DNA of 64,000 bases from Bacteroidetes bacterium GWB2_32_14. GTDB taxonomy: Bacteria; Bacteroidota; Bacteroidia; Bacteroidales; UBA12077. Location: positions 82,267-146,266 of the forward strand of contig MENK01000001.1 of the NCBI GenBank assembly GCA_001768235.1, given 5' to 3'. Below the pieces are notes generated by a model that searched no databases, had not been told where the DNA came from, and was given only the letters and a program-made list of their open reading frames with translations. A program made the translations under genes and the position numbers. How positions within the stretch are numbered: the first letter of the stretch is position 1; every line of letters begins with the position of its first letter. Shown here piece by piece: positions 12,914-30,206 of the stretch.

Positions 12914-13083
12914 AATTGTATTTATTTTAGTTAAACATTGTTTTAAGCTATGACGCTACCTTTTTAAAACAGGTTACATTTCTTATATAAATTTTGTAAA
13001 TTGGGTACGTATTTATTGGATTCAGCTTGCCTGCCTTTGGCAGGGATACAGGATTCAGGATATTTTAACTTTTATCTTATTTC

Positions 13084-13110
13084 TGTAACCTCTTATAAAG
13101 TAATTGCGTC
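13084..13110 (+). promoter_or_regulatory. Candidate ECF-type promoter (TGTAACC-N16-CGTC) upstream of the sigma gene
   Basis: The AAC-containing -35-like element and the CGTC -10-like element have ECF-typical spacing. The element ends ~10 nt before ATG 13121. Confidence 0.35.
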
Positions 13111-13120
13111 ATACAAACAA

Positions 13121-13702
13121 ATGAACAGAGTAAAAGACGATAAACAATATATCGACAGAATTGTTGGTGGTGATGTAAATGCATTCAGCTACATTGTTGA
13201 CAAGTACAAAGGTATGGTTTATACCCTGGCATTAAAGTTTTTGAAAAACCCTGAAGATGCCGAAGAACTTGCCCAGGATGTATTTATTAAAGCGTTTAAT
13301 GGATTGAGTGAATTTAAATTTGATTCTAAATTTTCAACATGGTTATATCGCATTACATACAATACGGCAATTTCGAAACTTAGAAAAAAACAAGTTGAAA
13401 CCTGTGATATAGATGATGTACATGTTCCTGAAAACCAGGTGTTAAGTGCTTATAATGCGATTAATGAATTAACAAAACAAGAACAAATAAAATATATTGA
13501 AATCGTTTTAAAAAATTTAAATGAAGAAGAAAGTGTAATTTTAACCCTGTTTTACTTAAATGAAAATTCGATACAGGAGATTTGTGAAATTACCGGTTTT
13601 TCAGAATCTAATGTAAAAGTTAAATTACACAGGGCCAGGAAAAGTTTTTACAATGAGTTAAAAAATATTTTAAAGGAAGAAGTAATATCCATCATACAAT
13701 GA
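13121..13702 (+). CDS. ECF-type RNA polymerase sigma factor
   Basis: Region 2 ('EDAEELAQDVFIKAF', 'FSTWLYRITYNTAI') and region 4 ('SIQEICEITGFSESNVKVKLHRARK'). The ORF-track start at 13001 adds an unlikely 40 aa, so ATG 13121 is preferred. Confidence 0.85.
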   Translation: MNRVKDDKQYIDRIVGGDVNAFSYIVDKYKGMVYTLALKFLKNPEDAEELAQDVFIKAFNGLSEFKFDSKFSTWLYRITYNTAISKLRKKQVETCDIDDVHVPENQVLSAYNAINELTKQEQIKYIEIVLKNLNEEESVILTLFYLNENSIQEICEITGFSESNVKVKLHRARKSFYNELKNILKEEVISIIQ

Positions 13703-14115
13703 AAAATAAAAAAATTGACATCGAGAAAATAACCCGCGAACTCATTCAGAAAGGCGAAGTTCAGCAACCGGGGGCAGATTTTACTAAGAATCTGATGGGT
13801 AGGATTTTAAAGAACCCGAATGTTACTGTTCAATTTATTAAACAGGAGAAAGATAAAAATTTTATCTGGGTATTATTTTCTCTTGCACTTGTTTTTATCG
13901 GATATATCGCCTTCTTTGTTTATAAAAACGGTTTGAATTCAATTGCCCAGGCAGAAAAAATCCATGCAATTTCTTATCTCAAATCTGTTTTCGATTTTTT
14001 TACAAAATTATGGTCTGAATTTAGCTTTTCCCCATACATACTCATTGCTTTTCTTGGAATTATTATTTTAATTTTATTCGATAAGTTTATTGTAAAATAC
14101 TTGTATTCAATATAG
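13699..14115 (+). CDS. Putative membrane anti-sigma factor, translationally coupled to the sigma gene
   Basis: ATGA overlap with the sigma gene stop. 138 aa with two TM helices. The call rests on position only. Confidence 0.45.
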   Translation: MKNKKIDIEKITRELIQKGEVQQPGADFTKNLMGRILKNPNVTVQFIKQEKDKNFIWVLFSLALVFIGYIAFFVYKNGLNSIAQAEKIHAISYLKSVFDFFTKLWSEFSFSPYILIAFLGIIILILFDKFIVKYLYSI

Positions 14116-14236
14116 AACAAGCTGGTAAAACAAAATTCTAAATAGGCCGTAATAAGTTATTGCCTATTTTTTTGCTTTTTAAGTTTTAGAATGTTGATTT
14201 TTACATAAATTTATCTTTTTTAATCAATAGTAAAAA

Positions 14237-14809
14237 TTGGAATCATTAAATAACGAGTTAATAATTGAAGGTATTCGTTCACAGAATCCTTATATACTCA
14301 ATCAAATATATACAAATTATTTCCCCGAAATCCGAAAATTTATTATTGATAATAATGGGACAATTCAGGATGCAAAAGATATTTTCCAGGAAGCAATAAT
14401 TATTATCTACAGGAAATTAAAGGTTGAGAACATTGTTATTACAAAATCGTTTAACTTATATCTGATAGGTGTTTGCAGGTATTTATGGTATCGCCAGGTT
14501 GCTTTTGTTAAAAACGAATCGGAACAACTGAATCATTTTGCGGAATATGAACGGTTGCCTGAATTTGAAATTGACGAAGTTGAAAAGAATGATAAGTACA
14601 AACTGTACCAGTTTCATTTTAAACAGTTGGGTATTGACTGCCAGAAAATTTTAGAAATGTTTTTAAATAATGTGCCAATAAAGGAGATAGCCAGGAAAAT
14701 GGGCAATACTTCTGAAAATTATATAAAAAGTCGAAAATACAAGTGTAAAGAACAATTGGTGAATAATATTAAAAACGATCCACGGTTTGCAAAGTATGAA
14801 AAGAAATAA
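14237..14809 (+). CDS. Second, divergent sigma-70/ECF-like sigma factor
   Basis: Region-2-like 'DAKDIFQEAIIIIYRKL', 'YLIGVCRYLWYRQ' and a region-4-like HTH 'PIKEIARKMGNTSENYIKSRKYKCKEQL'. TTG start. Confidence 0.7.
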   Translation: MESLNNELIIEGIRSQNPYILNQIYTNYFPEIRKFIIDNNGTIQDAKDIFQEAIIIIYRKLKVENIVITKSFNLYLIGVCRYLWYRQVAFVKNESEQLNHFAEYERLPEFEIDEVEKNDKYKLYQFHFKQLGIDCQKILEMFLNNVPIKEIARKMGNTSENYIKSRKYKCKEQLVNNIKNDPRFAKYEKK

Positions 14810-15533
14810 TTTCGATTTGACAGAAAGATATTTAATGGGCGATTTATCTGCGGAGGAAAGTACTGCTTTCGAGAAACTGATGGAAACAGATACTGAATTA
14901 AAAGCTGAATTAAATCTCGGGAAAGAGATTAATGAAGCAATTCTGGAATCGGATATTATGAATTTGCGCCATACCATGAGTGAAATCATGAATAAAAAAC
15001 AGAAGCCTGTATTCATTAAAAATCCATTTTTATGGCCGGCTACAGCTGCTGTTTTTATTCTGGCCATGATTATTAATACCTTATTTATAAGTTCACCCGC
15101 GGATAAGAATGATATTTTTAAAAAATATTACAAAGCATACCCGTCAGTATATAGCTCGAGAAGTTCTCAAAAACAATTGCGGGATCAACAATGCCTGAGA
15201 ATTGCTTTTGAACAATATGAAAAACCCGATTTTGAAAGTGCCGGTTTGTTGTTTAAAGAAATGTGGATCAAGGATTCAACAAATAATATGGCTAAATTTT
15301 ATTTATCTATAGCATTAATCGAGCAGAACAAAATGAATGAAGCCGAAAAGTATTTAAATGAACTAACTTTAAATAAACAACACTTATTTTATGAGCAATC
15401 GGTATGGTACCTGGCTTTGGTTTATTTAAATAATAATAAACCCGACGAAGCAGAAAGACTGTTAAATAAAATAATCTCGGAAAATTTATCGAATAAAACC
15501 CGGGCTAAGCAAATTCTGAAATCATTGAACTGA
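14796..15533 (+). CDS. Anti-sigma-like single-pass membrane protein with a C-terminal TPR domain (paralog A)
   Basis: Overlaps the sigma gene stop. N-terminal 'ERYLMGDLSAEESTAFEKLM' anti-sigma-type helix, TM 'FLWPATAAVFILAMIINTLFI', then TPR-like repeats ('WYLALVYLNNNKPDEA'). Confidence 0.65.
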   Translation: MKRNNFDLTERYLMGDLSAEESTAFEKLMETDTELKAELNLGKEINEAILESDIMNLRHTMSEIMNKKQKPVFIKNPFLWPATAAVFILAMIINTLFISSPADKNDIFKKYYKAYPSVYSSRSSQKQLRDQQCLRIAFEQYEKPDFESAGLLFKEMWIKDSTNNMAKFYLSIALIEQNKMNEAEKYLNELTLNKQHLFYEQSVWYLALVYLNNNKPDEAERLLNKIISENLSNKTRAKQILKSLN

Positions 15534-15537
15534 TTAT

Positions 15538-18357
15538 TTATTCTACAGGTTCAGGATAGTCATCCTTTTTTATTCTTGCCGAACGGTTTAACTTTTTTAC
15601 AATCAGAGTTACCAAAATTGCACCAAAAAGTACCCCGAACACGATGTAAATATACATGGCTGTATAGAGTGCATCGTTGTTCCCAATAACAACGTATCCC
15701 GACCAGAAATAGGGGTGAGCGTGTAATTGATCGGCATTCTGAAGAAACTCAATTTTTGCTTGTTGCAACGATTTTGATTTTGAAAATCCTTTTTTCAAAT
15801 CCTTGTAAAAAACAGTCATCAGTTTTACTCCCGAATTATCTTCGACCGACCATAAAGTCATTATTAACGATGGGCAACCTGCATATATGAATCCACGTGC
15901 TAAGCTCATAACTCCCTCGCCCTTTTGAAGGATTCCGGAACCGCTGTTGCACGAACTCAATACAGCCATCCTGCTTTTTAATTGCAAATTATATACTTCG
16001 TAGGTGTTTAAAAATCCGTCTTCGGTAGTATCGCTTGTTTGCGAAAAAGCCATTTTCGAATACATTGGGCTTTCATCGTTAAGTATGGTGTGCATTGCAA
16101 GGTGAAGAACATCAAATTCAGAGGCCTGTTGTTTAAATGTTTTTTCACTTGCATTTTCGTCTAAGAACAAGTTGCCCCCGATTAGTTTTGAAACGGTTTT
16201 TGCCTCTTCTTTTATTCCTTTTAACGGGTACAGTTTCTCCCTGTACTGTTGTCGTGTTAATATGACTCCCGGTTTCTGATTTTCCTGGTTATCGTATTTG
16301 GGTGCAAATGCAATAAGTTTTTTGGGAGCAATCTTCAGGTTATGTTCATTATCGAAAAGAATGCTTGCCGAATAGGTATAACTAATCGGGTTTTCAAACA
16401 AAAGATAATGCAATTTATTATAACTGATAGTGTTATAATTGCCCTCGTGGCAAAGTAAGGTTTCAAACGGGAGATAAGCCAGCTTTCCATCAGGGATAAT
16501 TATCAGGTGTTTTCCATTAATATAACCTGATACGGGAAGTATTAACTGTTTGTACAAATAGGATGATGATTTAATAAACCGGTTAAAATCTTCAAGATTA
16601 TGCTCCGAAAAGTTATTATCGGTTAAGCTGTTTATTTGCATTTCGAGATTTTCATCAAATCCGGGTTCTTTCTTTACACAAGTAAGCGAATAATCTGTTT
16701 TAGTTATTAAAAATATATAGACATTATCAGTACTTAAACAATATTCTATCACAGCATCTTTTTTCTTGATTCTTTCCTGTATATCTTTTATTTCAAACGA
16801 ATTATTCGAGAACTTTAACCTGAAATAATCAGGGTATTCCTTTTCAATCCTGGCAATAAGTTCGGCATGTTTTTCTTTTAATGTGAATATTTCTTTATTC
16901 CATGCAACAATAAACGTTTCATCAGGTTCTGCTTTTTTCCCCTCTTCATAAATCAGCTCTTCGAAAGTCCAGATACTTTTTTTCAATGAATTTTCGGTGT
17001 TCCGTATTTCCAGGGGTACATTTCCGGTTATCAATGCAGCATTGTTTTGTATTGCTTCGGAAAGTACGGCCGACTTTCCCGATTCAGAAAAACGAAATGC
17101 TTTTTCAAGATATTCTTTATTTCTTGTTGCTTCATATATCTTATAACTTGTTTCGAGTGTATGAATATATGTTTCGTGTTCGTTCTCGGCTAAGAAAAGC
17201 TTGCTCTGCTCACTCAAAAATCCGGAGCGGATTTCCCTGATAACATCTAATGCAAGTTCGCTGGCAGCTAGGCTGGCAGCCAGTGAATTGATGTTTGTTT
17301 TATCCTGTTCCCAGGTAAACTCTAAAGCAATGGATTTGTTTTTTAAGCTTCTTAATAACTGTGTTTTCGAAGAAACGGTACCGAGTTCAGGATTTGAACT
17401 ATAACCGGAGTCATTAAACTCCCTGGAGAGTGAGATTAATGATTTTTGAAAATAACTCAACGACTTTTGATATTCCCCGGTTTTTAAATAATACTCCCCG
17501 ATTTTAGAATATGCTCTTGCTGTTTCGGGATTCTTAATCCCTAAAATTTGTTTGTAAATCGATAATGCTTTTTCAAGGTTTTTTAACGATTCAGAGAGTT
17601 CGTTTTTGGAGTTTTGTAAAAACAGCCCATAGTTTAATTGATGTTGCGCATACCAGATGTTGTTTGTACCAAAATTTTTATGGATATTTTCGAGTGCTTT
17701 TAAATAATAAAATTCAGCTTTATCAGTGTTTCCTTCTTTTTCATACGAAAGGGCAAGGTTCTCGTATGTAGAATAAATAGTTTTATCTTCCTGTTTTAAT
17801 TTCAGACTATTTAAAAAACAAAGAATTGCCTTTTTGTTCTGATTAGTGTTTTTATATAAAATACCAAGATTATTATAAATTGATGCAATCAGCAACTTGT
17901 TTTTCATAGAGTCTGTATTTAGAATATTCAGTGATTCAGTATGATACAATTCTGCTTTTTCATAATCCTGTTGTCTTTCAAAAATTGTTGCCTTGTTTGC
18001 ATATACATATACAAGGCCTGGTGAATTGTGGCTTGATTTGTAAACTTGTTCGGCCTTGTTGTAACTCTGGATTGCTTCATCAAACCTGCCGTTCAATTTT
18101 TTTAGTATTCCAAAACTGATATAGGCCGATGCTAAATATTTTGTGTTGTTATTTTTTTCGAATATTTCAATAGATTTCCCGATATAGTAATAGGCACTAT
18201 CCAGGTTGCCCAGCTTACCGTATTCAATTCCTTTGGTTAAACTGAGAATCCCGTTTTCTAAAGTGTCAATACCAGACTGATTCTTGTAATTTGCTGAATT
18301 GCAGGCATTAATCAGGGTATGAGTTAGTATATAGATTATTAAAACGGATTTTTTCAT
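15538..18357 (-). CDS. Exported TPR-repeat CHAT-domain (caspase-like protease) protein with a C-terminal TM anchor
   Basis: Lipoprotein-like signal ('LINAC'), about 10 TPR-like repeats, and a CHAT catalytic-type region ('VLHLAMHT', 'MAVLSSCNSGSG', 'GFIYAGCPSLIMTLW'). Terminal hydrophobic helix followed by a basic tail. Confidence 0.85.
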   Translation of the reverse strand: MKKSVLIIYILTHTLINACNSANYKNQSGIDTLENGILSLTKGIEYGKLGNLDSAYYYIGKSIEIFEKNNNTKYLASAYISFGILKKLNGRFDEAIQSYNKAEQVYKSSHNSPGLVYVYANKATIFERQQDYEKAELYHTESLNILNTDSMKNKLLIASIYNNLGILYKNTNQNKKAILCFLNSLKLKQEDKTIYSTYENLALSYEKEGNTDKAEFYYLKALENIHKNFGTNNIWYAQHQLNYGLFLQNSKNELSESLKNLEKALSIYKQILGIKNPETARAYSKIGEYYLKTGEYQKSLSYFQKSLISLSREFNDSGYSSNPELGTVSSKTQLLRSLKNKSIALEFTWEQDKTNINSLAASLAASELALDVIREIRSGFLSEQSKLFLAENEHETYIHTLETSYKIYEATRNKEYLEKAFRFSESGKSAVLSEAIQNNAALITGNVPLEIRNTENSLKKSIWTFEELIYEEGKKAEPDETFIVAWNKEIFTLKEKHAELIARIEKEYPDYFRLKFSNNSFEIKDIQERIKKKDAVIEYCLSTDNVYIFLITKTDYSLTCVKKEPGFDENLEMQINSLTDNNFSEHNLEDFNRFIKSSSYLYKQLILPVSGYINGKHLIIIPDGKLAYLPFETLLCHEGNYNTISYNKLHYLLFENPISYTYSASILFDNEHNLKIAPKKLIAFAPKYDNQENQKPGVILTRQQYREKLYPLKGIKEEAKTVSKLIGGNLFLDENASEKTFKQQASEFDVLHLAMHTILNDESPMYSKMAFSQTSDTTEDGFLNTYEVYNLQLKSRMAVLSSCNSGSGILQKGEGVMSLARGFIYAGCPSLIMTLWSVEDNSGVKLMTVFYKDLKKGFSKSKSLQQAKIEFLQNADQLHAHPYFWSGYVVIGNNDALYTAMYIYIVFGVLFGAILVTLIVKKLNRSARIKKDDYPEPVE

Positions 18358-18577
18358 TTAATTCGTCACAAATTTTTTACAATATACTCTAAAATTGATT
18401 AAAAGTTAGTTTTTTTTGCATTTGTAAAACTCAGTAAATCAAAAGTATAAAAATTATTTTAAAAAAAGTTTAAAAATAATTTCAAAAACCGGGTTACCTT
18501 TTTTAAAAAAACTGCACATATAAGTGGAGAGAGAAACATAATTTTTATAAATAATAAAATCTAAAAAAACCAAAACC

Positions 18578-18736
18578 ATGAAAAGTTTAATTCACTTATT
18601 CGGGCAGGATGAACCCAAAAAATCATTCAAACAATTTGCACAACTCGGTACTAACGATATGCTGCTTGTAAAAGGCGGCGATGGTGATCCAATTGATGAT
18701 GATCTTTGGCCCCCGGTTCCACCGATTCAGAAATAA
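18578..18736 (+). CDS. Double-glycine-leader peptide 1, Cys-free acidic/Pro-rich core (52 aa); absent from the ORF track
   Basis: MKSLIHLFGQDEPKKSFKQFAQLGTNDMLLVKGG|DGDPIDDDLWPPVPPIQK. Hydrophobic residues sit at -4, -7, -12 and -15 relative to GG, as in C39-processed leaders. Confidence 0.7.
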   Translation: MKSLIHLFGQDEPKKSFKQFAQLGTNDMLLVKGGDGDPIDDDLWPPVPPIQK

Positions 18737-18767
18737 AGTTATTGATTTTATTAAAAGAACCAAAGCC

Positions 18768-18932
18768 ATGAAAAGTTTAATTCACTTATTCGGGCAGGAT
18801 GAACCCCAAAAATCATTTAAACAATTTGCACAACTTAGTACTAACGATATGTTGCTTGTAAAAGGCGGCGATGGAGAGCCACAAGACGATCTTTGGCCTC
18901 CAATTCCTCCCTTACCACCAACAACAAAATAA
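18768..18932 (+). CDS. Double-glycine-leader peptide 2, tandem paralog (54 aa)
   Basis: MKSLIHLFGQDEPQKSFKQFAQLSTNDMLLVKGG|DGEPQDDLWPPIPPLPPTTK. The leader DNA is almost identical to peptide 1. The ORF-track start at 18681 is read-through of the spacer. Confidence 0.7.
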   Translation: MKSLIHLFGQDEPQKSFKQFAQLSTNDMLLVKGGDGEPQDDLWPPIPPLPPTTK

Positions 18933-18994
18933 TATTTAAAACCTGAAAACCCAAAAGTTATTTTAAATATAAACCGTTCTAAAATTTAAAGTAT

Positions 18995-19747
18995 ATGAAT
19001 AGTTACAACCCTATTGTAGATAAATATATTTACGGGGAACTCGATACCGACGAAATGGTAGCTTTTGAGCAGTTGCTGGCAAACGATTCCCGTGTAAAAA
19101 AGGAGTATCATTTATACAACGATATAAACCATGCCATACTCGAGAAGGATGTTATGGTACTCCGCGGTACTCTCGATGGAATATATAATGAAATTGCCGA
19201 GCCAAAAGAAAAATATATTTCATCGGTTTTCTCTAAACGCAAGATGTATTACGCTGCCGCTTCGCTTGCCATGTTAATGGCTACAGGTGGTATTGTTAAC
19301 CAGTTAGCAAAAAACGACATGGGTAACGAAGCAATTTACAGCAAATATTTTACTCCTTACGAAGTAGCTGTTACTTATCGTTCAGGGAATGAAGAGGCTG
19401 ACAAACTGCTTTTATACGCGCTCCAGAAATACGAAGATGAGGAATATGATAAAGCTGTTGTTCTTTTCGAACAGGTACTCGAAAAACGAAATAATGATAT
19501 GGCTGCTAATTTATATTCAGGTATTTCTCTTATGGAAACTGAAAAATACCAAAAAGCAACACATTCGTTTCAGGCAATTATTGCACAAAATGATAACTTA
19601 TTTACTGAACAGGCAAAATGGTACCTGGCAATGTGTTACATTAAAACAAACAGTGTTTCTAAAGCAGAGAATATTTTAAATGATTTAATTGTTAAAAACA
19701 GCTATTATAAAGATATAGCCAAAAAAGTACTTAAAGAACTGGATTAA
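18995..19747 (+). CDS. Anti-sigma-like single-pass membrane TPR protein (paralog B of 14796..15533), with no adjacent sigma gene
   Basis: Same layout and alignable motifs as paralog A ('DKYIYGELDTDEMVAFEQLL'; TM 'YYAAASLAMLMATGGIV'; 'WYLAMCYIKTNSVSKAE'). Confidence 0.65.
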   Translation: MNSYNPIVDKYIYGELDTDEMVAFEQLLANDSRVKKEYHLYNDINHAILEKDVMVLRGTLDGIYNEIAEPKEKYISSVFSKRKMYYAAASLAMLMATGGIVNQLAKNDMGNEAIYSKYFTPYEVAVTYRSGNEEADKLLLYALQKYEDEEYDKAVVLFEQVLEKRNNDMAANLYSGISLMETEKYQKATHSFQAIIAQNDNLFTEQAKWYLAMCYIKTNSVSKAENILNDLIVKNSYYKDIAKKVLKELD

Positions 19748-19765: not shown

Positions 19766-20488
19766 ATGAAACCACAATCTGGCACCATTAGTCGGGATGA
19801 CATTAAAGAAAGTAATGTTTCCGATAGCACCAGGAGTAGTTTTCTTTCGCATATATCGCATGGTATAAGAACGCCTTTAAACTCCATCATGGGTTTTTCC
19901 AATTTATTATTAGACAGGCAGCTTGTTGATGGTAAGCAAATTGAATATGCAAGGCGCATAGTTTCCAGCAGTAATGTATTGTTAAATTTTGTAGAGAACC
20001 TGATCGATTTGTCGCAATTCGATTCAAATAAATACAAGGTTACCCAACAGCAAGTTGATTTAAATTCATTGCTATGGAAAATAGCCGAAGATTTTATTAT
20101 TCAGAAAATTGATAAGGATTATTCTGAAATTGAACTTTCGGTGAATATCCATTCAGGAATCGAAGATTTTTTAATAACTACCGATTATGTATTGCTGAAA
20201 AAATCGTTAAACAGGCTTGTTGAGTTAGTTGCTGCTATTTATAAAACCGGGAAAATCGAGTTGGGATATTGCATTGAAAACAACCATGTACTTAAAATAT
20301 ATGTTCGTGAAAATAGCGACGAATATTTTAAACAGCAGGGCAACCTGGAGTTTAGGGATGATAACGGGGAAGATATGTTTAATGATTTCAATTTCGAAGT
20401 GCTTGTTCGTTCGATAGATCTTATTGGCGGGCGGGTTTGTACTGACTCAATTATGAATGAATATTATATCGAATTGCCAATAAATTGA
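19766..20488 (+). CDS. Soluble histidine-kinase-like protein: intact HisKA H-box, degenerate ATPase domain
   Basis: 'FLSHISHGIRTPLNSIMGFSNLL' is a good H-box. I could find no N-box (NxxxNAxK), DxGxG or GxGxGL in the C-terminal half. No TM helix. Confidence 0.65.
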   Translation: MKPQSGTISRDDIKESNVSDSTRSSFLSHISHGIRTPLNSIMGFSNLLLDRQLVDGKQIEYARRIVSSSNVLLNFVENLIDLSQFDSNKYKVTQQQVDLNSLLWKIAEDFIIQKIDKDYSEIELSVNIHSGIEDFLITTDYVLLKKSLNRLVELVAAIYKTGKIELGYCIENNHVLKIYVRENSDEYFKQQGNLEFRDDNGEDMFNDFNFEVLVRSIDLIGGRVCTDSIMNEYYIELPIN

Positions 20489-20547: not shown

Positions 20548-20901
20548 ATGACAACATTTAATATATACTTACCAACAAAAAACGGGAAAATAGGAGTAGA
20601 GCTTAAACATATTCTTTACTTCGAATCCCTGGGCGACACCAATTTTATGGTGTTAAACAATGATGAAAAAATCGAGTTGTTAATGGCCGTTGATGAAATT
20701 GAGCAACTGCTGTGTTACCGTGGATTTTTCAGGTTTACACAAAACTACCTTGTAAACCTTAAAGCTGTTCAGCTTATATTCCCTGGCGATGCGTCGAAAG
20801 TGGTTCTCGAAAATGGTAAAGAAATTTTTGCACCGCAAAGCCGCCGTGAAGAACTTTTTAGAGAACTCGAGAAAGTGTACCAGGTTCACGCGACTATATA
20901 A
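20548..20901 (+). CDS. Stand-alone LytTR DNA-binding domain protein (no receiver domain)
   Basis: 117 aa. LytTR-like 'ILYFESLGDTNFMV...FFRFTQNYLVNLKAV'. The usual H-[RK]-S triad is replaced by T-Q-N. Confidence 0.7.
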   Translation: MTTFNIYLPTKNGKIGVELKHILYFESLGDTNFMVLNNDEKIELLMAVDEIEQLLCYRGFFRFTQNYLVNLKAVQLIFPGDASKVVLENGKEIFAPQSRREELFRELEKVYQVHATI

Positions 20902-21006: not shown

Positions 21007-21366
21007 ATGATTGATTTAAATGGAAAAATATACATCCAATCCGAAGATGAAAAAATAATCCAAATTGAAGAAATAAAAAATATTGTTTATTTAGAAGCCG
21101 ACAATAGAAAAACGAAAGTTTATTGCTTCAACGGGAATCAGTATTTAATTAATAAATGCCTGAGTTACATAGAAGAAAGGATTACAAATAAAAATTTCTT
21201 TAAGATCCATAAATCATTTATCATTAATGTTGATTATTTAAAAAGTGTTAACTACAAAGGTGAAAAAAATGTAGTTCTTGAAAATGATATTAAAATTCAA
21301 ATAGCTTGTCGAAAATATCCTGAATTCAAGAGATTTTTGAAAGAGAAATTTTCGTTTTTTCAGTAA
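21007..21366 (+). CDS. Stand-alone LytTR DNA-binding domain protein (no receiver domain)
   Basis: 119 aa. Canonical 'IVYLEADNRKTKVY...FFKIHKSFIINVDYLKSV'. Confidence 0.8.
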   Translation: MIDLNGKIYIQSEDEKIIQIEEIKNIVYLEADNRKTKVYCFNGNQYLINKCLSYIEERITNKNFFKIHKSFIINVDYLKSVNYKGEKNVVLENDIKIQIACRKYPEFKRFLKEKFSFFQ

Positions 21367-21667: not shown

Positions 21668-23287
21668 TTGAAAGAATCATTGATTTATATACTGAAAAGA
21701 ATTCTGAAAGAGAACAGGATTAAAGTTGACGAAAAAGAGCTGGAGTTTCAACTATTAAGCCATCCGTCGTACCCCAGCTTACATTCAGTTACGGGTGTTT
21801 TAGATCATTTTGCAATTAGTAACCTCGCGTTGGAAGTTCCTAAAAATATTGAAACTTTAAACCAATTACCCAGGTTTTTTCTTGCTTATATTAAAGATAT
21901 AAATAACGATGATTTAGTTTTGGTTACGAATAAAGATTCTAAAATATGTTTAATATATAATGAAAAAAGAACGGAAACTTTATCGACAGATAAATTTTTA
22001 AATGCATGGACAGGAGTAATTGTTGGAGTTGAAAAAGATAACGAAGTTGTTCCAAAAACGAACCCATTAGATTTAACCTTATTTACTTCATTTTTAACGA
22101 TAGTTTTATTAATTATCTTGTTTTTCTCTTTTAAACCGGATTTATTTCAGTCCCTGCATTTCTTATTATCATTTGCCGGATTAGCAATTAGTATAGTTAT
22201 TGTAAAACACGAGCTGGGTTTTCATTCTAAAATCGCAGATAAATTTTGTTCTGGAAATATTGATAAAATAAATTGTGATGATGTATTGAAATCGAAAGCA
22301 GCAAATTTTTTCGGAGTTTTTAAATTAAGTGATGTTGGAATTATTTATTTTTTATCCCTAACAGTATCCTGGCTATTATTATCAATGAATAAAGCAGGAT
22401 ATGATTCTTTAATTGTTATTTCAGTTTTAGCTATACCTTTTACTTTTTATTCAATAATTTATCAATATTTTGTTGTAAAAAAATGGTGTTTACTATGTTT
22501 AAGTGTAGTTTTAATATTGTGGTTGCAGGCAACTTCTCTTTTTATTGTTGATATAGATATTACCAGTTTATCTTTTACCTATAATAGTTTACTATTAGTT
22601 GCTTTTAGCTTCTTGCTCACAACCGTTTTTTGGCAATTTGTATTGCCTAAAATGAAAAAAGAAAAGGAATTAAGTATATTAAAAATTGAACATTACAAGT
22701 TTAAACGAAACTACAGCATATTTAATGCGCTTATATCAAGGTATGTTCAAATGAATACAGCAATCAATGGTACTAATGAGATTGTATTTGGGGATATGAA
22801 TAACCTTTTTAAAATTACAATTATTACGAACCCATTGTGCAGTTTTTGTAAAGGAGCACACGAACTGGTCGAAAACCTGTTAAAAAGCGGGAATAAGAAT
22901 ATTCAAATAACCATAAGATTTAATGTAAACCTGAATCGTGATGCTACTGATAATAAAATAGCCCTGAGATTATTAGAACTATACAATGTATCTGGTATAG
23001 AACAATGTTTAAACGCGATGCATGATATTTATGGTAAACTGTTACCCAAGAATTGGCTGGAAAAATGGGGCGAAGCCGGTAACCCCCAATATATTGAAAT
23101 ATTAAGGGCAGAAAAAGAGTGGTGTAAGCAAAACAATATCAACTTCACTCCTGAAATACTAATAAACGGGAGACCACTTCCAAAAGAATATGAAAGAAAT
23201 GATTTATTGTACTTTGTAGAAGATGTAGTTGAAAATGAGCAACAAAAAATTGAAAGCTCAATTTCAGAATTAGAATATACATCATAA
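21668..23287 (+). CDS. Three-domain membrane protein: catalytic-Cys-less C39-like domain, VKOR domain, thioredoxin/DsbA-like domain
   Basis: The N-terminal ~125 aa resemble a C39 fold, but 'SHPSYPSL' sits where the exporter has 'MDCGPSCL'. VKOR loop Cys pair 'CSGNIDKINC' and membrane CxxC 'WCLLC'. C-terminal 'NPLCSFCKGAH' CxxC. TTG start. Confidence 0.7.
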   Translation: MKESLIYILKRILKENRIKVDEKELEFQLLSHPSYPSLHSVTGVLDHFAISNLALEVPKNIETLNQLPRFFLAYIKDINNDDLVLVTNKDSKICLIYNEKRTETLSTDKFLNAWTGVIVGVEKDNEVVPKTNPLDLTLFTSFLTIVLLIILFFSFKPDLFQSLHFLLSFAGLAISIVIVKHELGFHSKIADKFCSGNIDKINCDDVLKSKAANFFGVFKLSDVGIIYFLSLTVSWLLLSMNKAGYDSLIVISVLAIPFTFYSIIYQYFVVKKWCLLCLSVVLILWLQATSLFIVDIDITSLSFTYNSLLLVAFSFLLTTVFWQFVLPKMKKEKELSILKIEHYKFKRNYSIFNALISRYVQMNTAINGTNEIVFGDMNNLFKITIITNPLCSFCKGAHELVENLLKSGNKNIQITIRFNVNLNRDATDNKIALRLLELYNVSGIEQCLNAMHDIYGKLLPKNWLEKWGEAGNPQYIEILRAEKEWCKQNNINFTPEILINGRPLPKEYERNDLLYFVEDVVENEQQKIESSISELEYTS

Positions 23288-23303
23288 AAGACCTTTTTCC
23301 CGG

Positions 23304-23401
23304 GGGGAAGGTTTATAAAGAAATTCTATTGCGAAGAATAAACCGAAACTTGACGGTTTAAAAAAGTTCAAGATTTTCTTTAACTAAAAATTCTTAATAA
23401 A
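23304..23401 (+). promoter_or_regulatory. Cassette upstream element, copy 1 (conserved promoter/operator-like repeat)
   Basis: Contains GCGAAGAATAAACCGAAACTTGACGG (23331-23356) and TTCAAG (23367-23372). TTGACGG lies 52 nt before the ATG. Confidence 0.55.
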
Positions 23402-23572
23402 ATGAAAGATTTAAAAAATTTAAAAGGTGCTAAAGTTCTTGGCAAAACAGAACAAAAAGCTATTAAGGGCGGAGTAATAGTTATTTGTGAAGGATGTCCG
23501 CCAATATCCGATTGTTGTGTAAATAACATTTGTGGCAAAATAGGTATAGGTGGAAAATGTTATGCCATTTAG
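23402..23572 (+). CDS. GG-leader Cys-rich bacteriocin-like precursor A (56 aa, 6 Cys in the core); absent from the ORF track
   Basis: MKDLKNLKGAKVLGKTEQKAIKGG|VIVICEGCPPISDCCVNNICGKIGIGGKCYAI. Confidence 0.75.
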   Translation: MKDLKNLKGAKVLGKTEQKAIKGGVIVICEGCPPISDCCVNNICGKIGIGGKCYAI

Positions 23573-23588
23573 TTTTATTTTATTCAGG

Positions 23589-23631
23589 TTAACTAGGAAT
23601 TATCTGGATTTTTCAGATAACTTCTAGTTAA
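23589..23631 (+). terminator. Hairpin after precursor A
   Basis: TTAACTAGGAATTATCTG / CAGATAACTTCTAGTTAA, 16 of 18 positions complementary. Confidence 0.5.
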
Positions 23632-23809
23632 TTATTTAGGTGGAATCCACAGTTTGCCTGACTTTAAAAAAGCAGTTGAAAATCAGGGTTTTATGCACGT
23701 GACATGCAGTTGTAACAGCTAAATGTTATTTTGAAGTGCTATGTAATATTTGCGATTTTTTTATTCTGCATACAAGTCAGAAATTGAATGCATACCACGA
23801 AATAATTTA

Positions 23810-23908
23810 CTCAAGGAAGATTTAAAAAGAAATTCATTCGCGAAGAATAAACCGAAACTTGACGGTTTTAAAATGCTCAAGATATTTTAACCTAAAATTT
23901 CTAATAAA
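23810..23908 (+). promoter_or_regulatory. Cassette upstream element, copy 2
   Basis: Differs from copy 3 at about five positions in 99 nt by my count. TTGACGG at 23859-23865 (50 nt before the ATG); CTCAAG at 23876-23881. Confidence 0.6.
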
Positions 23909-24055
23909 ATGAAAGATTTAAAGAAAATGAAAGGTGTTAAGATTCTTAGCAAAAAGGAGCAAAAAGCTATTAAAGGCGGATATGCTTGCAGAGAACCTGA
24001 AATGTGGTGCCCTCCCGGATCGATTTGTGTTGATGGGCTTTGTCGTCCAGTATAA
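23909..24055 (+). CDS. GG-leader Cys-rich bacteriocin-like precursor B (48 aa, 4 Cys)
   Basis: MKDLKKMKGVKILSKKEQKAIKGG|YACREPEMWCPPGSICVDGLCRPV (C-x6-C-x5-C-x4-C). Confidence 0.75.
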   Translation: MKDLKKMKGVKILSKKEQKAIKGGYACREPEMWCPPGSICVDGLCRPV

Positions 24056-24081
24056 TAGCAGATACGATTATTAACTAATTA

Positions 24082-24115
24082 AGAAGTTGTCTGAAAAAAT
24101 ATTCTGGCAACTTCT
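24082..24115 (+). terminator. Hairpin after precursor B
   Basis: AGAAGTTG ... CAACTTCT stem. Confidence 0.4.
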
Positions 24116-24198
24116 CTTAAAAATCATTACCTCCCCCTTGATATTTCCCCGGGGGAATAAAAAAGTTTAACATCAGTAATTGAATAAAAACTATTTTT

Positions 24199-24297
24199 CT
24201 AAAGGAAGATTTAAAAAGAAATTCTCTCGCGAAGAATAAACCGAAACTTGACGGTTTTAAAATGCTCAAGATATTTTAACCTAAAATTCTTAATAAA
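24199..24297 (+). promoter_or_regulatory. Cassette upstream element, copy 3
   Basis: GCGAAGAATAAACCGAAACTTGACGG at 24229-24254 and CTCAAG at 24265-24270. TTGACGG lies 50 nt before the ATG. Confidence 0.6.
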
Positions 24298-24453
24298 ATG
24301 AAAGATTTAAAAAAATTAAAAGGTGCTAAAATTCTTAGCAAAAAGGAGCAAATCTCAATTAAAGGTGGAAAAATTTATTGTGGTGATGGAAAACCTTGTC
24401 CTGTTGGTACAATATGTAATGGGACATGGTGTGAACCATATATTGAGGCATAG
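24298..24453 (+). CDS. GG-leader Cys-rich bacteriocin-like precursor C (51 aa, 4 Cys)
   Basis: MKDLKKLKGAKILSKKEQISIKGG|KIYCGDGKPCPVGTICNGTWCEPYIEA (C-x5-C-x5-C-x4-C). Confidence 0.75.
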   Translation: MKDLKKLKGAKILSKKEQISIKGGKIYCGDGKPCPVGTICNGTWCEPYIEA

Positions 24454-24471
24454 TATCAAATTTTAAATATC

Positions 24472-24503
24472 GAGAGAAAATCTTTGGTTTTCTCTCATTT
24501 TTA
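24472..24503 (+). terminator. Hairpin plus T-tract after precursor C
   Basis: GAGAGAAAA / TTTTCTCTC stem followed by ATTTTT. The sequence is related to the hairpin after precursor D. Confidence 0.6.
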
Positions 24504-24604
24504 ATTAAATAAGTTTAGATCGCTTTAAGTTAGAAATAATTAAGAAAGTTGTAAAATACTTACAATAAGTTGTGTTTAATTTTTAACTCAATGATAGCAT
24601 ATAT

Positions 24605-25540
24605 ATGGATATAATTAATAGCATCATAGATTTTGTTAAGGATAACTGGACTACAATATTTAGTGGTATTGGTACAACTATTTTAATTGGAATTCTCGGA
24701 TATATTGGTAAGCGTATGAAAAAAGGAAAAAAAATATCCCAAGAAGAAAAAAAAGTTATAAATCAAAGTGTGAATACTGGAGATAACTCAAAAGTAATTC
24801 AAAGTGCTGAAAACATCATAATTGACAATTCAGATGTTAAAATAAATAATGATTCAAAATCAACAGCCACAGAGCAAACAATTATTGTGCAAGCTGGTAG
24901 AGATGCTATATTGAATGTTAAACAAAGTCCGCCTGACATAAAATTAGTACGAGTAACAGTTGAAGATGATGAAACACAAAGAGGGCTGAAGCAAAAGCTG
25001 AATGTAATAATGAAAAATAATGGAGATAAAAGTGTATTTCTTTTAAGTGGTCATCTAGAGGTTATTGGTTGTGAAGACATTGTAAATCCAAATCATTTTG
25101 GAATGCATTATAAACTTAGTTTTGCTGATTGGAATTATGATGTTGATATTAATAGTGATAACCCTAGCTTTAAGGGACAACATATAATTGAACCAGATGA
25201 AGTAATTAACTTTAATGTCATAGTCGGTAGAAATGAAGGAGGCCTTAATTTATCAGTCTATAAATGTTTATTAAAGTTTAAATTTGATGAACACAAGGAT
25301 TTAGAATGTGGTCCATTTTTCTTGCTTATTTCTGGACCAACTGTTTGGGATGGAGGTTTTCAAGCCTGTGGACCAACTCCTGAACAATGGGGCAGAGCGC
25401 AAGTAGATAACATCAAACGTTTAGACAGTATAGGATATGATTATCGTCATCAAATTCATCCAGATTCAAGAAAATACCTTGAAGAAATAGACCCACATAT
25501 CTTTGAAAAACAAAAAACTAAACACAACACGCGGTCATAA
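24605..25540 (+). CDS. Hypothetical N-terminally membrane-anchored protein (311 aa) interrupting the cassette array
   Basis: Long clean ORF. TM helix 'IFSGIGTTILIGILGYIG', then a low-complexity Asn/Ser/Asp linker and a ~200-aa globular domain. I do not recognise any family motif. Confidence 0.55.
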   Translation: MDIINSIIDFVKDNWTTIFSGIGTTILIGILGYIGKRMKKGKKISQEEKKVINQSVNTGDNSKVIQSAENIIIDNSDVKINNDSKSTATEQTIIVQAGRDAILNVKQSPPDIKLVRVTVEDDETQRGLKQKLNVIMKNNGDKSVFLLSGHLEVIGCEDIVNPNHFGMHYKLSFADWNYDVDINSDNPSFKGQHIIEPDEVINFNVIVGRNEGGLNLSVYKCLLKFKFDEHKDLECGPFFLLISGPTVWDGGFQACGPTPEQWGRAQVDNIKRLDSIGYDYRHQIHPDSRKYLEEIDPHIFEKQKTKHNTRS

Positions 25541-25660
25541 AACATGCCGGTTTCAGTCGGTTTTCGAGCGTTTCGTCCCGCCTCGTAGGTTTGTAACGGG
25601 GGGTACAGACGCAGCCCCGCAATCCGGCACGTTTCATACCGCCAACGTTAGAGTATAGCA
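25541..25660. other. GC-rich, non-coding, structure-prone island of unknown nature
   Basis: Composition jumps sharply relative to the AT-rich surroundings. Complementary segments: ATGCCGG (25544-25550) / CCGGCA (25624-29), and CGGGG...CCCCG around 25597-25619. No ORF. Confidence 0.3.
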
Positions 25661-25697
25661 TGACGGGAAATTAAACTTTACAAAAATGACTGAAGCT

Positions 25698-25750
25698 TTG
25701 ACGGTCAACTAAATGCTCAAGGCAAATTATTAATTAAATAGTAACTTATT
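25698..25750 (+). promoter_or_regulatory. Cassette upstream element, truncated copy 4 (core only)
   Basis: TTGACGG at 25698-25704 (53 nt before the ATG) and CTCAAG at 25716-25721. The distal GCGAAGAATAAACCGAAAC part is absent. Confidence 0.5.
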
Positions 25751-25924
25751 ATGAAAGAATTAAAAAATTTAAAAGGTGCTAAAGTTCTTAGCAAAAAAGA
25801 GCAAATCTCAATTAAAGGCGGATTAGAAATTTGTGATATTTTTGGGCATGATTGCCATGAAGGTTATATTTGCAAATTAGTGAATTCAACCACGGGATGG
25901 TGCATTCCTGTAATCGAAGATTAA
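25751..25924 (+). CDS. GG-leader Cys-rich bacteriocin-like precursor D (57 aa, 4 Cys)
   Basis: MKELKNLKGAKVLSKKEQISIKGG|LEICDIFGHDCHEGYICKLVNSTTGWCIPVIED. Confidence 0.75.
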   Translation: MKELKNLKGAKVLSKKEQISIKGGLEICDIFGHDCHEGYICKLVNSTTGWCIPVIED

Positions 25925-25934
25925 TGTCTTGAAT

Positions 25935-25970
25935 AATGAGAGGGAACTTTTTGGTTTTCTCTCATTATTT
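25935..25970 (+). terminator. Hairpin after precursor D
   Basis: AATGAGAG / CTCTCATT stem. Shares 'tttggttttctctcatt' with the hairpin after precursor C. Confidence 0.55.
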
Positions 25971-26175
25971 AAAATTTAGAATTTAGAATAACTCATTTCT
26001 GCCCAGGATTTTGCCATGGGGCTAATCATTAAATAAAATAGTTTTAAATACAACAGTATCAATACAGAAGCAAATCGATTATAAAAAATCTTTGTAAATA
26101 AATGCAATTTATTTTCTGAATTATTAAAATTAATCCTAAGTCTGTTCAAGAGTTTTTAATATCTTTAAACCAAAA

Positions 26176-28392: not shown

Positions 28393-28490
28393 AAAAGTTG
28401 CAGCAGTATGTAGCAGCAGGAAGCGGAAGTATTTAGTTAAGGTTAGTTGGTAGTATAAAAATTATAACTAAAATTTTAATATAATAGACA

Positions 28491-28862
28491 ATGGAGTTTG
28501 GGTTTAAACAGTTAAAAGTTTACCAAAAGGCATATCAGCTCGCAAAAGAGATATTTGAAATCAGCAAATCATTTCCTATAGAAGAGAAGTATTCTTTAAC
28601 AGATCAGATAAGAAGATCATCAAGAGCTGTTTGTGCTAATATTGCGGAAGCATATCGAAAAAGACGATATCCTAAACACTTTACATGTAAAATTACTGAC
28701 TCAGACGCTGAAGCTAGTGAGACTGTTGTTTGGCTTAATTTTGCAATGGATTCTAATTACATTTCTAAAGAAATTCAAATGCGATTAGAAAATGAATATG
28801 AAGAAGTTGAAAGAATGTTAGGTTCAATGGCCGATCATCCTGAAAAATTTTTACCAAAATAA
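28491..28862 (+). CDS. Four-helix-bundle protein ('23S rRNA intervening-sequence protein' family)
   Basis: 'FKQLKVYQKAYQLAKEIFEISKSFP..EKYSLTDQIRRSSRAVCANIAEAY' is the typical family signature. Wedged between the exporter and HlyD genes. Confidence 0.8.
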   Translation: MEFGFKQLKVYQKAYQLAKEIFEISKSFPIEEKYSLTDQIRRSSRAVCANIAEAYRKRRYPKHFTCKITDSDAEASETVVWLNFAMDSNYISKEIQMRLENEYEEVERMLGSMADHPEKFLPK

Positions 28863-28910
28863 ATTATACTGCATACTGCAACTGTCAACTGCAGCTTAAT
28901 AATAAATAGT

Positions 28911-30206
28911 ATGGAAGAACAAAATAAAATTGAACTTCGCTCGAATGATGTACAAGAAATTCTCAGCCGTCCACCAAAATGGATTGTGCGATGGGGTATT
29001 ACAATAATTCTGATTGTTGTTGTTATCTTGATTGCAGGGAGTTGGTTTTTTAAATATCCCGACATTATTACTGCAAAAATAGTATTGACTACAGAAAACC
29101 CACCATCTCCCGTAGTTGCTAAAACATCGGGCAAAATTCAGAACTTGTTTGTTACCGATAAGCAGGAAGTAAAAAAGAATCAGGTATTGGCAGTTATCGA
29201 GAATCCCGCAAATTTCAATGATATAAGTATAATCATTGAAAAATTAAACAACTTTAATTCAGATTCTTATTCCAATGAAATTTTTTCAGGGAGTTATAAT
29301 CTTGGCACTATTCAATCCTATTATGCTGATTTTATCAGAAATCTTGATGAATACCAAAAACTTGTTCAGATGGATTATCACCAGAAAAAAATCAATCTCT
29401 TGAAAAAAGAAATTATACAATACACAAAATACCTCGCAAATTTAAAAGTGCAAAACAACCTGCAAAAAAGAGAATACGAATTAATAGTGAACCAATTCTA
29501 TCGTGATTCAACTTTACACGATCAGCAGTTAATATCTGAGGCTGAATTTGAGAAATCGAAGTCATCCTTATTGTCAAAACAGTTTAGTCTTGAACAATCA
29601 AACATTGCACTTACCAATACCGAAATTCAGGTTCAAAATATTGAGCAGAGCATAGCAGAACTTGAGCTGCAGGAAGAAAAACAATTGTCGGATAAAAAGC
29701 TGCTAATCAAACAGTCGTGTGAAAATTTAATTGCAGCTATCGATTCCTGGAAATACCAGTATGTTTTAATTGCATCAACCGATGGTAAAGTTACATTTAA
29801 CAAGTTCTGGAATGAGAATCAATCGGTAAAATCAGGAGAAACAGTACTTACAATAATTCCGGATAATGAGGGTGAAATAATTGGTAAGGTTCAATTGTCG
29901 TTTCAGGGTGCCGGGAAAGTAAAAGAAGGACAACAGGTAAATATTCGATTCGATAATTATCCATATATGGAATTTGGAATGGTTAAAGGAGTGGTAAAAT
30001 CAATATCGCAAGTTCCCGATAATGATTATTATACTGCCGAAATACAGTTGCCCGGCGGATTAATTACATTTTACAATGAAAAACTCGATTTTAAGCAGGA
30101 AATGCAAGGTACAGCAGAGATTGTAACTGAAGATTTCCGGTTATTGGAACGTATTGTAAGGCCATTGCGGTACGTTTTAAATAAAAATACTAAGTTTGGG
30201 GGTTAA
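28911..30206 (+). CDS. HlyD-family membrane fusion/accessory protein for the peptide exporter
   Basis: N-terminal TM helix, long coiled-coil middle and a C-terminal beta-barrel-like region, immediately downstream of the C39 ABC transporter. Confidence 0.8.
   Translation: MEEQNKIELRSNDVQEILSRPPKWIVRWGITIILIVVVILIAGSWFFKYPDIITAKIVLTTENPPSPVVAKTSGKIQNLFVTDKQEVKKNQVLAVIENPANFNDISIIIEKLNNFNSDSYSNEIFSGSYNLGTIQSYYADFIRNLDEYQKLVQMDYHQKKINLLKKEIIQYTKYLANLKVQNNLQKREYELIVNQFYRDSTLHDQQLISEAEFEKSKSSLLSKQFSLEQSNIALTNTEIQVQNIEQSIAELELQEEKQLSDKKLLIKQSCENLIAAIDSWKYQYVLIASTDGKVTFNKFWNENQSVKSGETVLTIIPDNEGEIIGKVQLSFQGAGKVKEGQQVNIRFDNYPYMEFGMVKGVVKSISQVPDNDYYTAEIQLPGGLITFYNEKLDFKQEMQGTAEIVTEDFRLLERIVRPLRYVLNKNTKFGG

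Follow-up and report, generated by a model that had tools for sequence, protein, structure and literature searches.

Pairs formed by extracytoplasmic function (ECF) sigma factors and anti-sigma factors are a major signaling route in bacteria, and the input is unknown for most groups of these pairs. We describe here a set of linked genes in Bacteroidetes bacterium GWB2_32_14 (Bacteroidota; Bacteroidales) that combines such a pair with a putative protease and small peptides predicted to be exported. The genes lie in a 64,000-nucleotide stretch of contig MENK01000001.1 (assembly GCA_001768235.1, positions 82,267 to 146,266 of the forward strand), which we call the window and to which unlabeled coordinates refer. 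They encode a divergent ECF-type sigma factor (SIG), two anti-sigma-like proteins that combine a transmembrane (TM) segment with a tetratricopeptide repeat (TPR) domain (ASIG1 and ASIG2), a TPR protein with a caspase-like CHAT domain, and two peptide precursors with double-glycine (GG) leaders (PEP1 and PEP2). Our working model is that these components form a CHAT-driven, peptide-linked module for sigma release, and we give this model as a whole slightly less than an even chance of being correct. A sequence-only reading of the same DNA had already raised the protease step and knew of no characterized example of it; two described systems turn out to be relevant, DdvA/DdvS (PMC11506125) and Craspase (PMC10028731).

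DdvA of Myxococcus xanthus is the anti-sigma factor of the ECF sigma factor DdvS and carries an anti-sigma domain (ASD), a TM segment, TPRs, and a CHAT domain on a single chain (PMC6061681, PMC11506125; PDB 8rot, 8rw5). The periplasmic CHAT domain has been proposed to cleave DdvA itself as a site-1 step before RseP in response to a trigger that is unknown, and DdvA-like proteins have been reported only from Myxococcota and one Comamonas (PMC11506125). The window locus resembles DdvS/DdvA in its ECF sigma factor with a single-pass anti-sigma-like protein, in its predicted periplasmic TPR-CHAT protein with a His/Cys dyad, and in the role proposed for CHAT as a site-1-like protease ahead of RseP cleavage. 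The two systems also differ. DdvA is one chain that forms a dimer and is proposed to cut itself in trans, whereas the anti-sigma-like protein and the TPR-CHAT protein of the window are encoded by separate, convergent genes. The ASD of DdvA has a CHCC zinc site, whereas the corresponding ASIG module has no zinc ligands, and the DdvS regulon is a defense island of cyclic oligonucleotide-based antiphage signaling system (CBASS) and CRISPR genes, whereas the candidate regulon here is a GG-leader peptide operon beside a bacteriocin-like locus. The window family is also large and found in Bacteroidota, and no sequence similarity between DdvS/DdvA and the window proteins was detectable in PDB sequence and profile searches. 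By analogy, the module would work like a split, trans-acting version of the DdvA system without being a member of the DdvA family.

In Craspase, a type III-E CRISPR system, Csx30 binds and inhibits the ECF-like CASP-sigma and is itself cut by Csx29, a TPR-CHAT protease (PMC10028731). The window likewise pairs a TPR-CHAT protein with a nearby-encoded candidate inhibitor of an ECF-type sigma factor, and the window CHAT protein finds its best structural match in Csx29. Craspase, however, works in the cytoplasm, where it is bound to Cas7-11 and has target RNA as its trigger, and Csx30, a soluble protein, bears no relation to the TM/TPR proteins of the window; no CRISPR genes were seen among the neighbors examined. 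Canonical regulated intramembrane proteolysis (RseA/DegS/RseP and RsiW/PrsW/RasP) has the same plan of a single-pass anti-sigma factor with a cytoplasmic ASD, an extracytoplasmic sensor, and a site-1 protease in the same compartment as the sensor. Those pathways use serine proteases or metalloproteases, whereas the window offers, as its candidate for the site-1 step, a cysteine protease of the caspase fold that has a large TPR array and a gene in linkage with the sigma operon. Its candidate cue is an exported peptide that the cell itself makes.

The Gram-positive pheromone circuits built on GG-leader peptides (ComC/ComAB/ComDE, BlpC/BlpAB/BlpHR, and Pln) and the bacteroidetocin loci (PMC6671954) share with the window a short GG-leader peptide near a C39 ATP-binding cassette (ABC) exporter and LytTR proteins, an arrangement that suggests autoinduction, and adjoining Cys-rich, bacteriocin-like GG peptides with a thiol oxidoreductase. 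The transducer is where they part: instead of a membrane histidine kinase (HK) and a LytTR protein with a receiver (REC) domain, it would here be the ECF sigma/anti-sigma/CHAT set, since the HisKA protein of the window is soluble and its LytTR proteins have no receiver domains. No regulator is described for the bacteroidetocin loci (PMC6671954), and a full-text literature search found no description of a Bacteroidota system that joins a sigma factor, an anti-sigma factor, a CHAT protein, and a peptide.

Conservation of the Module across Bacteroidota

SIG (14237 to 14809, plus strand, 190 residues) is translationally coupled to ASIG1 (14796 to 15533, plus strand), whose likely start is the ATG at 14796; the two genes overlap by 14 nucleotides, with the SIG stop codon at 14807 to 14809. 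Convergent with them is the gene for the TPR-CHAT protein (15538 to 18357, minus strand), a 939-residue caspase-like putative protease with H756 and C803 that is predicted to be exported and held by a C-terminal membrane anchor. Only 4 bp separate the stop codons of ASIG1 (15531 to 15533) and CHAT (15538 to 15540). These reading frames, the sigma/anti-sigma coupling, and the closely convergent stops are all as the sequence-only reading had drawn them.

A sigma-profile scan of one genome per GTDB species yielded 80 loci, which were annotated by phmmer against the window proteins; presence counts use the 55 related loci for which 16 kb of sequence or more was available. An ASIG gene is present in 49 of these 55 loci, a TPR-CHAT gene in 43, and all four parts (sigma, ASIG, CHAT, and peptide) in 39. 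SIG and ASIG adjoin or overlap by 4 nucleotides in related loci, and anti-sigma and CHAT occupy separate genes in all of them. The window belongs to clade A (17 loci, sigma identity 46-72%), in which a canonical ECF pair, SIG, ASIG1, a convergent CHAT gene, a peptide, ASIG2, a HisKA gene, and one to three LytTR genes form the typical array, often accompanied by a C39-like/VKOR gene or by a pair comprising a peptidase-containing ABC transporter (PCAT) and HlyD. Clade B consists of Prolixibacteraceae, including Sunxiuqinia, Mangrovibacterium, Draconibacterium, and Mariniphaga, and has the order SIG-ASIG-CHAT with CHAT on the minus strand, or SIG-CHAT-ASIG with CHAT on the minus and ASIG on the plus strand. 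Farther out, 7 of 7 distant CHAT homologues, at 29-37% identity, have as their neighbors a sigma factor of about 190 residues and a single-pass TPR protein of about 250 residues. One layout of these distant loci (L083, L085, and L086) places an HK-ASIG-peptide group divergent from CHAT with the sigma gene convergent and a PCAT adjoining, and another (L081, L084, and L087) has SIG-ASIG, then a type IX secretion system (T9SS) cargo protein, then CHAT. The co-occurrence of TPR-CHAT with this sigma/anti-sigma family, which the sequence-only reading had offered as a check on its proposal, is thus strongly conserved. Synteny that holds in dozens of genomes excludes chance, and because even distant CHAT homologues adjoin a sigma factor and a TPR protein, the sigma/ASIG/CHAT trio is, from comparative genomics, the conserved core of the module, with the GG-leader peptide as a near-constant fourth component.

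Two features of gene arrangement in the relatives should be recorded here. The 3′ ends of the convergent ASIG and CHAT genes overlap by up to about 25 nucleotides (L001:11292-11303 and other clade-A loci), and with no terminator between them the transcripts must overlap. In L084 (2606-9354) there are two tandem TPR-CHAT genes.

The Protein Components

SIG scores 36 bits against TIGR02937 (sigma70-ECF), under the 42.9-bit cutoff, yet it covers the whole model; it passes none of the Pfam models. Its family has at least 201 homologues, most of which match PF04542, and its product is 100% identical to a protein recorded for Bacteroidetes bacterium GWC2_33_15. An AlphaFold2 (AF2) model built from 22 family members (pLDDT 81) has two helical domains, sigma2 at about residues 6-102 and sigma4 at about residues 113-188, joined by a disordered linker, and the top PDB matches that Foldseek returned for this model are all ECF sigma factors (E. 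coli sigmaE/RseA, 1or7; Mycobacterium tuberculosis SigL; BldN; AlgU). Because most of the family matches PF04542 and the model matches ECF sigma factors exclusively, SIG is accepted, on family membership and predicted fold, as a divergent ECF-type (group IV) sigma factor. Its sigma4 domain also contains two Cys residues, C135 and C170, that are invariant in 22 of 22 aligned family members, and C80 is nearly so; a redox or metal role for these residues is possible.

The TPR-CHAT protein matches the CHAT model PF12770 over residues 599-893 (E 1.3e-56), preceded by multiple TPR matches, and has at least 597 homologues. Its candidate catalytic residues, H752/H756 in HLAMH and C803 in SSCNSG, are invariant in 47 of 47 orthologues and in 49 of 49 wider homologues (down to 28% identity), so that the dyad suggested by the sequence-only reading survives proper alignment. 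An N-terminal signal peptide is followed, at the other end of the protein, by a C-terminal TM segment (residues 902-920) and the tail KKLNRSARIKK, and a signal peptide together with a C-terminal TM segment and a K/R-rich tail is found in all 46 full-length orthologues. From this predicted topology, the TPR array and the CHAT domain must be extracytoplasmic and tethered to the inner membrane, as had been proposed. Two details of the sequence-only reading need correction. The lipoprotein-type signal that it assigned is not conserved, as the orthologues do not share the lipobox-like Cys seen in the window and carry ordinary signal peptides. The presence of multiple TPRs stands, but in place of about 10 repeats the AF2 model (pLDDT 86.7, pTM 0.80) contains about seven canonical TPR hairpins and about four other helical hairpins. 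The best Foldseek matches of the model are Csx29 (8eey_B, E 2.5e-15), human separase (E 2e-14), and DdvA (E 1.6e-13). Neither the full CHAT protein nor a profile of 21 CHAT-domain sequences reached DdvA, Craspase, or separase in PDB sequence and profile searches; the fold search alone did so.

Each ASIG protein is made up of an N-terminal helical module of about 60 residues, one hydrophobic segment, a conserved juxtamembrane stretch, and a C-terminal TPR domain. The TM segment of ASIG1 spans residues 85-103, with K/R richer on the N-terminal side and the TPRs on the C-terminal side, and 81 ASIG sequences each have one hydrophobic segment with a mean of 3.3 K+R upstream versus 1.3 downstream. 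The predicted orientation is N-in/C-out with a periplasmic TPR domain, which agrees with the single-pass topology that the sequence-only reading had assigned. The hydrophobic segment of ASIG2 is weaker (1.4-1.7) and rich in Ala and Gly. Past the TM segment, ASIG1 has the conserved pattern Y-x2-YY-x2-Y-x6-RS; Arg125 is present in 81 of 81 ASIG sequences and Ser126 in 75 of 81, which makes this Arg-Ser pair, about 20 residues beyond the membrane, the most conserved periplasmic feature of ASIG, and one that distant homologues retain as well. The TPR domain has conserved surface residues of its own (F201, E203, W207, and Y208). The family is large: clustering at 50% identity leaves 1,444 representatives at E<=1e-10, and almost all of them measure about 250 or about 500 residues. 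A profile search of a 5.8-billion-protein set with the 76-residue ASD-like module returned three 60-residue fragments only. In support of an anti-sigma identity, 4 of 15 family members match zf-HC2 (PF13490; best E 7.9e-6); the window protein is not among them. The anti-sigmaE model NF010501 scored E 0.0075. By this comparison, the N-terminal module likely resembles a zf-HC2 anti-sigma domain in which other residues take the place of the zinc ligands, and it would be at best a non-zinc ASD.

A Promoter-like Motif and the Peptide Operon

Footprinting of the CHAT-peptide intergenic region of clade A revealed a conserved block with a bipartite, promoter-like form. All 80 loci were searched with the pattern GGGT[CT]ACCTTTT, allowing at most one mismatch and leaving the GAATA block out of the pattern. 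The search returned 105 core sites versus 10.6 in shuffles, and 76 core sites have GAATW at exactly +11, where 0.05 would be expected. The family consensus is GGGTTACCTTTT-N11-GAATA(A/T). In 48 loci, drawn from both clades, the motif lies 73-94 nucleotides ahead of a gene for a GG-leader peptide, and in 28 clade-B loci it lies 39-43 nucleotides ahead of the ATG of SIG. A promoter motif directly before a sigma gene is the classic arrangement of ECF autoregulation. In clade B the motif is also found beside the CHAT gene, directed away from it. The window has a single copy, GGGTTACCTTTT-N11-(C)ACATA (18491 to 18519, plus strand), 87 nucleotides ahead of the PEP1 gene, in which the second block, ACATA, deviates from the consensus. 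Since SIG, ASIG, and CHAT are the sole regulators common to all motif-bearing loci, the motif is most simply read as a SIG-dependent promoter, which in the window would serve the peptide operon.

Other interpretations of the conserved letters were considered. An inverted repeat or hairpin (TCACCT...AGGTGA) before the peptide gene was rejected because the window and L001 variants show no co-variation and because the clade-B sites retain the first block with GAATA as the second block. A GGTTTA...GAATAA combination within a 72-nucleotide cassette that precedes Cys-rich peptide genes farther downstream in the window was not counted as a SIG site, its spacing being 4 nucleotides longer. A scan for E. 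coli-type sigma-70 promoters and terminators found nothing above shuffled background, although that scan does not cover Bacteroidota promoter types. Two side observations concern the motif in relatives. In Sunxiuqinia-type loci (L019, L020, L025, L027, L028, L030, and L035) the motif and the first 6-17 codons of SIG (MIKYTN...) are duplicated before ASIG, as in the remnant at L020:10754-10850, and L027, L060, and L080 each contain two identical or near-identical promoter-peptide-ASIG cassettes.

Behind the motif, PEP1, PEP2, ASIG2, a HisKA gene, and two LytTR genes follow one another with short intergenic gaps. PEP1 (18578 to 18736, plus strand) encodes a precursor whose leader ends in LLVKGG and whose core is DGDPIDDDLWPPVPPIQK, and PEP2 (18771 to 18932, plus strand) encodes a second GG-leader precursor with the core DGEPQDDLWPPIPPLPPTTK. 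Across the family, the peptides have a GG leader and an acidic core of 10-25 residues that is often Pro-rich and Asp-rich. The cores are constant within lineages and different between lineages, a pattern expected of a signal and not of a toxin.

ASIG2 (18995 to 19747, plus strand) has the architecture of ASIG1 and is its paralog, as the sequence-only reading had recognized (31% identity over the full length, E 3e-35). That reading had cast the sigma-less copy as a possible decoy, a role that now looks unlikely. Orthologue identity is 53-56% for ASIG2 versus 39-40% for ASIG1, ASIG2 gives higher scores than ASIG1 with almost every out-group family member tested, and the sole ASIG gene of several lineages sits in the post-peptide position. 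Because ASIG2 lies downstream of the motif, is better conserved and closer to the rest of the family, and takes a position that other lineages also use, it is the family-typical copy and probably a sigma-induced feedback anti-sigma factor.

The gene that follows ASIG2 (19766 to 20488, plus strand) encodes a HisKA-containing, kinase-like protein that is soluble, with no TM segment and no clear HATPase_c match, and the 19-nucleotide gap before it makes membership in the ASIG2 operon probable. Two LytTR-only DNA-binding proteins without receiver domains come next (20548 to 20901 and 21007 to 21366, plus strand). This HisKA-only and LytTR-only set departs from a canonical two-component pair but is kept in the clade-A peptide operon. 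Genes for soluble HKs also lie beside ASIG in L083, L085, and L086, and L081 likewise has them near its module. The LytTR-only proteins are candidate second-tier regulators of the bacteriocin-like genes downstream.

Proposed Mechanism and Alternatives

In the proposed mechanism, the cytoplasmic modules of ASIG1 and ASIG2 would hold SIG at the membrane, while the predicted topologies place the ASIG TPR domains and the TPR-CHAT protease in the same periplasmic compartment. Upon a periplasmic cue, CHAT would clip the juxtamembrane segment of ASIG that carries the Arg-Ser pair with its invariant Arg, about 20 residues past the TM segment. This cut would be the site-1 cleavage that leads to intramembrane proteolysis and release of SIG, in a trans version of the DdvA proposal, and by that analogy a role for CHAT as a site-1-type protease of the TPR anti-sigma factor is plausible. 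Free SIG would then transcribe from GGGTTACCTTTT-N11-GAATA promoters, as comparative genomics suggests. The output would be an exported, short, acidic, Pro-rich peptide, fresh anti-sigma factor as negative feedback, and the LytTR regulators, because the sole such promoter in the window would drive the PEP1-PEP2-ASIG2-HisKA-LytTR-LytTR operon. The LytTR regulators may in turn switch on the adjoining bacteriocin-like export locus. In the least certain step, a C39 ABC transporter would cleave and export the peptide, which would itself be the most likely periplasmic cue and close an autoinduction loop. The full version of this scheme, a quorum-sensing-like circuit in which the self-made, PCAT-exported peptide binds a periplasmic TPR domain and activates CHAT, ASIG is cut at Arg-Ser, and the released SIG yields more peptide, more anti-sigma factor, and LytTR proteins that act on the bacteriocin-like locus, is one that, taken as a whole, we consider somewhat unlikely.

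A number of observations weigh against the working model. Autoproteolysis by the CHAT domain has not been observed for DdvA (PMC11506125), which is the nearest precedent for the protease step. There is no CHAT gene within 10 kb in 12 of the 55 related loci. L081 and L082 have the trio and no GG peptide nearby, and the loci of clade B contain no PCAT within 10 kb, so that the peptide step, and with it the peptide gating favored by the sequence-only reading, cannot hold in every lineage. In clade A, SIG is without the motif; in its place a terminator hairpin and then a TAnnTTTG-like box stand before the gene, so that SIG would not be autoregulated in the clade of the window. The anti-sigma assignment has its own difficulties. 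No Pfam match passes for the ASD-like module of the window ASIG protein itself, and a PDB profile search with the ASIG module reached only RsrA, at E 0.79; given the missing PF13490 match and this value for RsrA, membership among the ASDs is likely and not proven. The HxxxCxxC zinc ligands are not present in ASIG, where the aligned positions are F/E/D/L and no His or Cys is conserved. Finally, Prolixibacteraceae ASIG proteins of about 500 residues carry three or four tandem ASD-like modules of about 60 residues ahead of the TM segment (L021, L038, L056, L079, and about 45 more clade-B loci; an example is L056:6407-7912), an organization atypical of anti-sigma factors. Such tandem modules might let one clade-B ASIG hold several sigma molecules.

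The role of CHAT could be different from the one in our model. It could act on the peptide, either by trimming the pro-peptide or by quenching the signal, with the ASIG TPR domain as the receptor and other envelope proteases performing the site-1 cut. The peptide gene almost always adjoins, and diverges from, the CHAT gene, the short, acidic, Asp-rich cores vary by lineage like pherotypes, the long TPR array of the CHAT protein is suited to peptide binding, and the ASIG TPR domain has conserved surface residues of its own. On the other hand, the sigma/ASIG/CHAT trio persists in lineages with no detectable GG peptide, leader removal is already explained by the dedicated C39 peptidase, and the fusion of ASD, TM segment, TPRs, and CHAT in one DdvA chain argues for a direct functional link between anti-sigma factor and CHAT; we consider this explanation unlikely. 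TPR-CHAT might instead be mainly a non-catalytic, bulky periplasmic co-receptor or shield that sits on the ASIG TPR domain and blocks the site-2 protease until a signal releases it, much as the bulky TPR-CHAT part of DdvA blocks RseP and as catalytic mutants of DdvA have no phenotype under the conditions tested. It might also be a co-regulated effector protease with unrelated envelope substrates, a role that could account for the CHAT genes that lie downstream of a T9SS-cargo gene in L081, L084, and L087 (motif-bearing in L081) and could be part of the sigma output. Neither role fits well with a His/Cys dyad and active-site motifs that are invariant in 49 homologues down to 28% identity, which indicates selection for catalysis, or with a motif that is directed away from the adjacent CHAT gene both in the clade of the window and in clade B, and we regard both together as quite unlikely.

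The promoter assignment has a rival as well, in which the motif is the site of another regulator, either a LytTR protein or the neighboring canonical ECF sigma factor, and the peptide operon and ASIG2 stand outside SIG control. Clade-A loci do encode LytTR proteins and a second ECF pair, and the ACATA block of the window departs from the GAATA consensus. Clade B, however, has the motif before both SIG and the peptide and has no LytTR genes and no second ECF pair nearby. Its -35/-10 architecture and its closeness to the start codon are what one would expect of an ECF promoter, and the motif accompanies the SIG family even in distant loci, L081 among them. Control by another regulator is very unlikely in light of these points, and SIG stays the preferred candidate for the factor that reads the motif.

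Genes Adjoining the Module

Upstream of the SIG region lies a gene for a canonical ECF sigma factor (13001 to 13702), followed by a gene for a 138-residue protein with two TM segments (13699 to 14115), and the same pair precedes SIG in 16 of the 17 clade-A loci. A terminator-like hairpin with a T-run, read from the sequence (14141 to 14173, plus strand), divides this pair from SIG. The hairpin and T-run are kept in all 17 clade-A loci and are followed there by the TAnnTTTG-like box.

Downstream of the LytTR genes, positions 21668 to 30206 resemble a bacteroidetocin-type locus. It begins with a C39-like/VKOR/thioredoxin fusion (21668 to 23287) and contains four Cys-rich GG-leader peptides (23402 to 23572, 23909 to 24055, 24298 to 24453, and 25751 to 25924); a conserved cassette, about 72 nucleotides long, stands before each of the first three peptide genes (at 23306, 23815, and 24204). 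A C39 ABC exporter of the PCAT type (26176 to 28392; Peptidase_C39, 1.5e-31) and HlyD (28911 to 30206) follow. Wedged between these two genes is one for a 23S_rRNA_IVP or bAvd-like four-helix protein (28491 to 28862). The locus also encodes a 311-residue protein with an N-terminal TM segment and no Pfam match (24605 to 25540), which could be an immunity or accessory protein.

Conclusions

Beyond the genes that could be read from the window itself, the comparison across Bacteroidota adds the bipartite motif, the identification of ASIG2 as the family-typical copy and a probable feedback anti-sigma factor, and the GG-leader peptide as a near-constant component. The Bacteroidota module is far more widespread, with its 1,444 ASIG cluster representatives and at least 597 CHAT homologues, than the DdvA-like proteins. 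Its protease and putative substrate reside on two proteins that can be purified and mutated separately, and a candidate ligand, the short exported peptide, and a candidate promoter read-out come with the module. With separable proteins, a candidate ligand, and a candidate read-out at hand, the notion that a caspase-like protease performs the site-1 cut can be put to a direct test. Should the proposed mechanism be true, the module would provide the ligand-triggered case of CHAT as a site-1 protease that DdvA has yet to offer. Should the peptide prove to be the cue, a novel form of peptide signaling would be established in a Gram-negative phylum, and the regulatory logic would be the first put forward for loci of the bacteroidetocin type, which are important for competition within gut and environmental communities.

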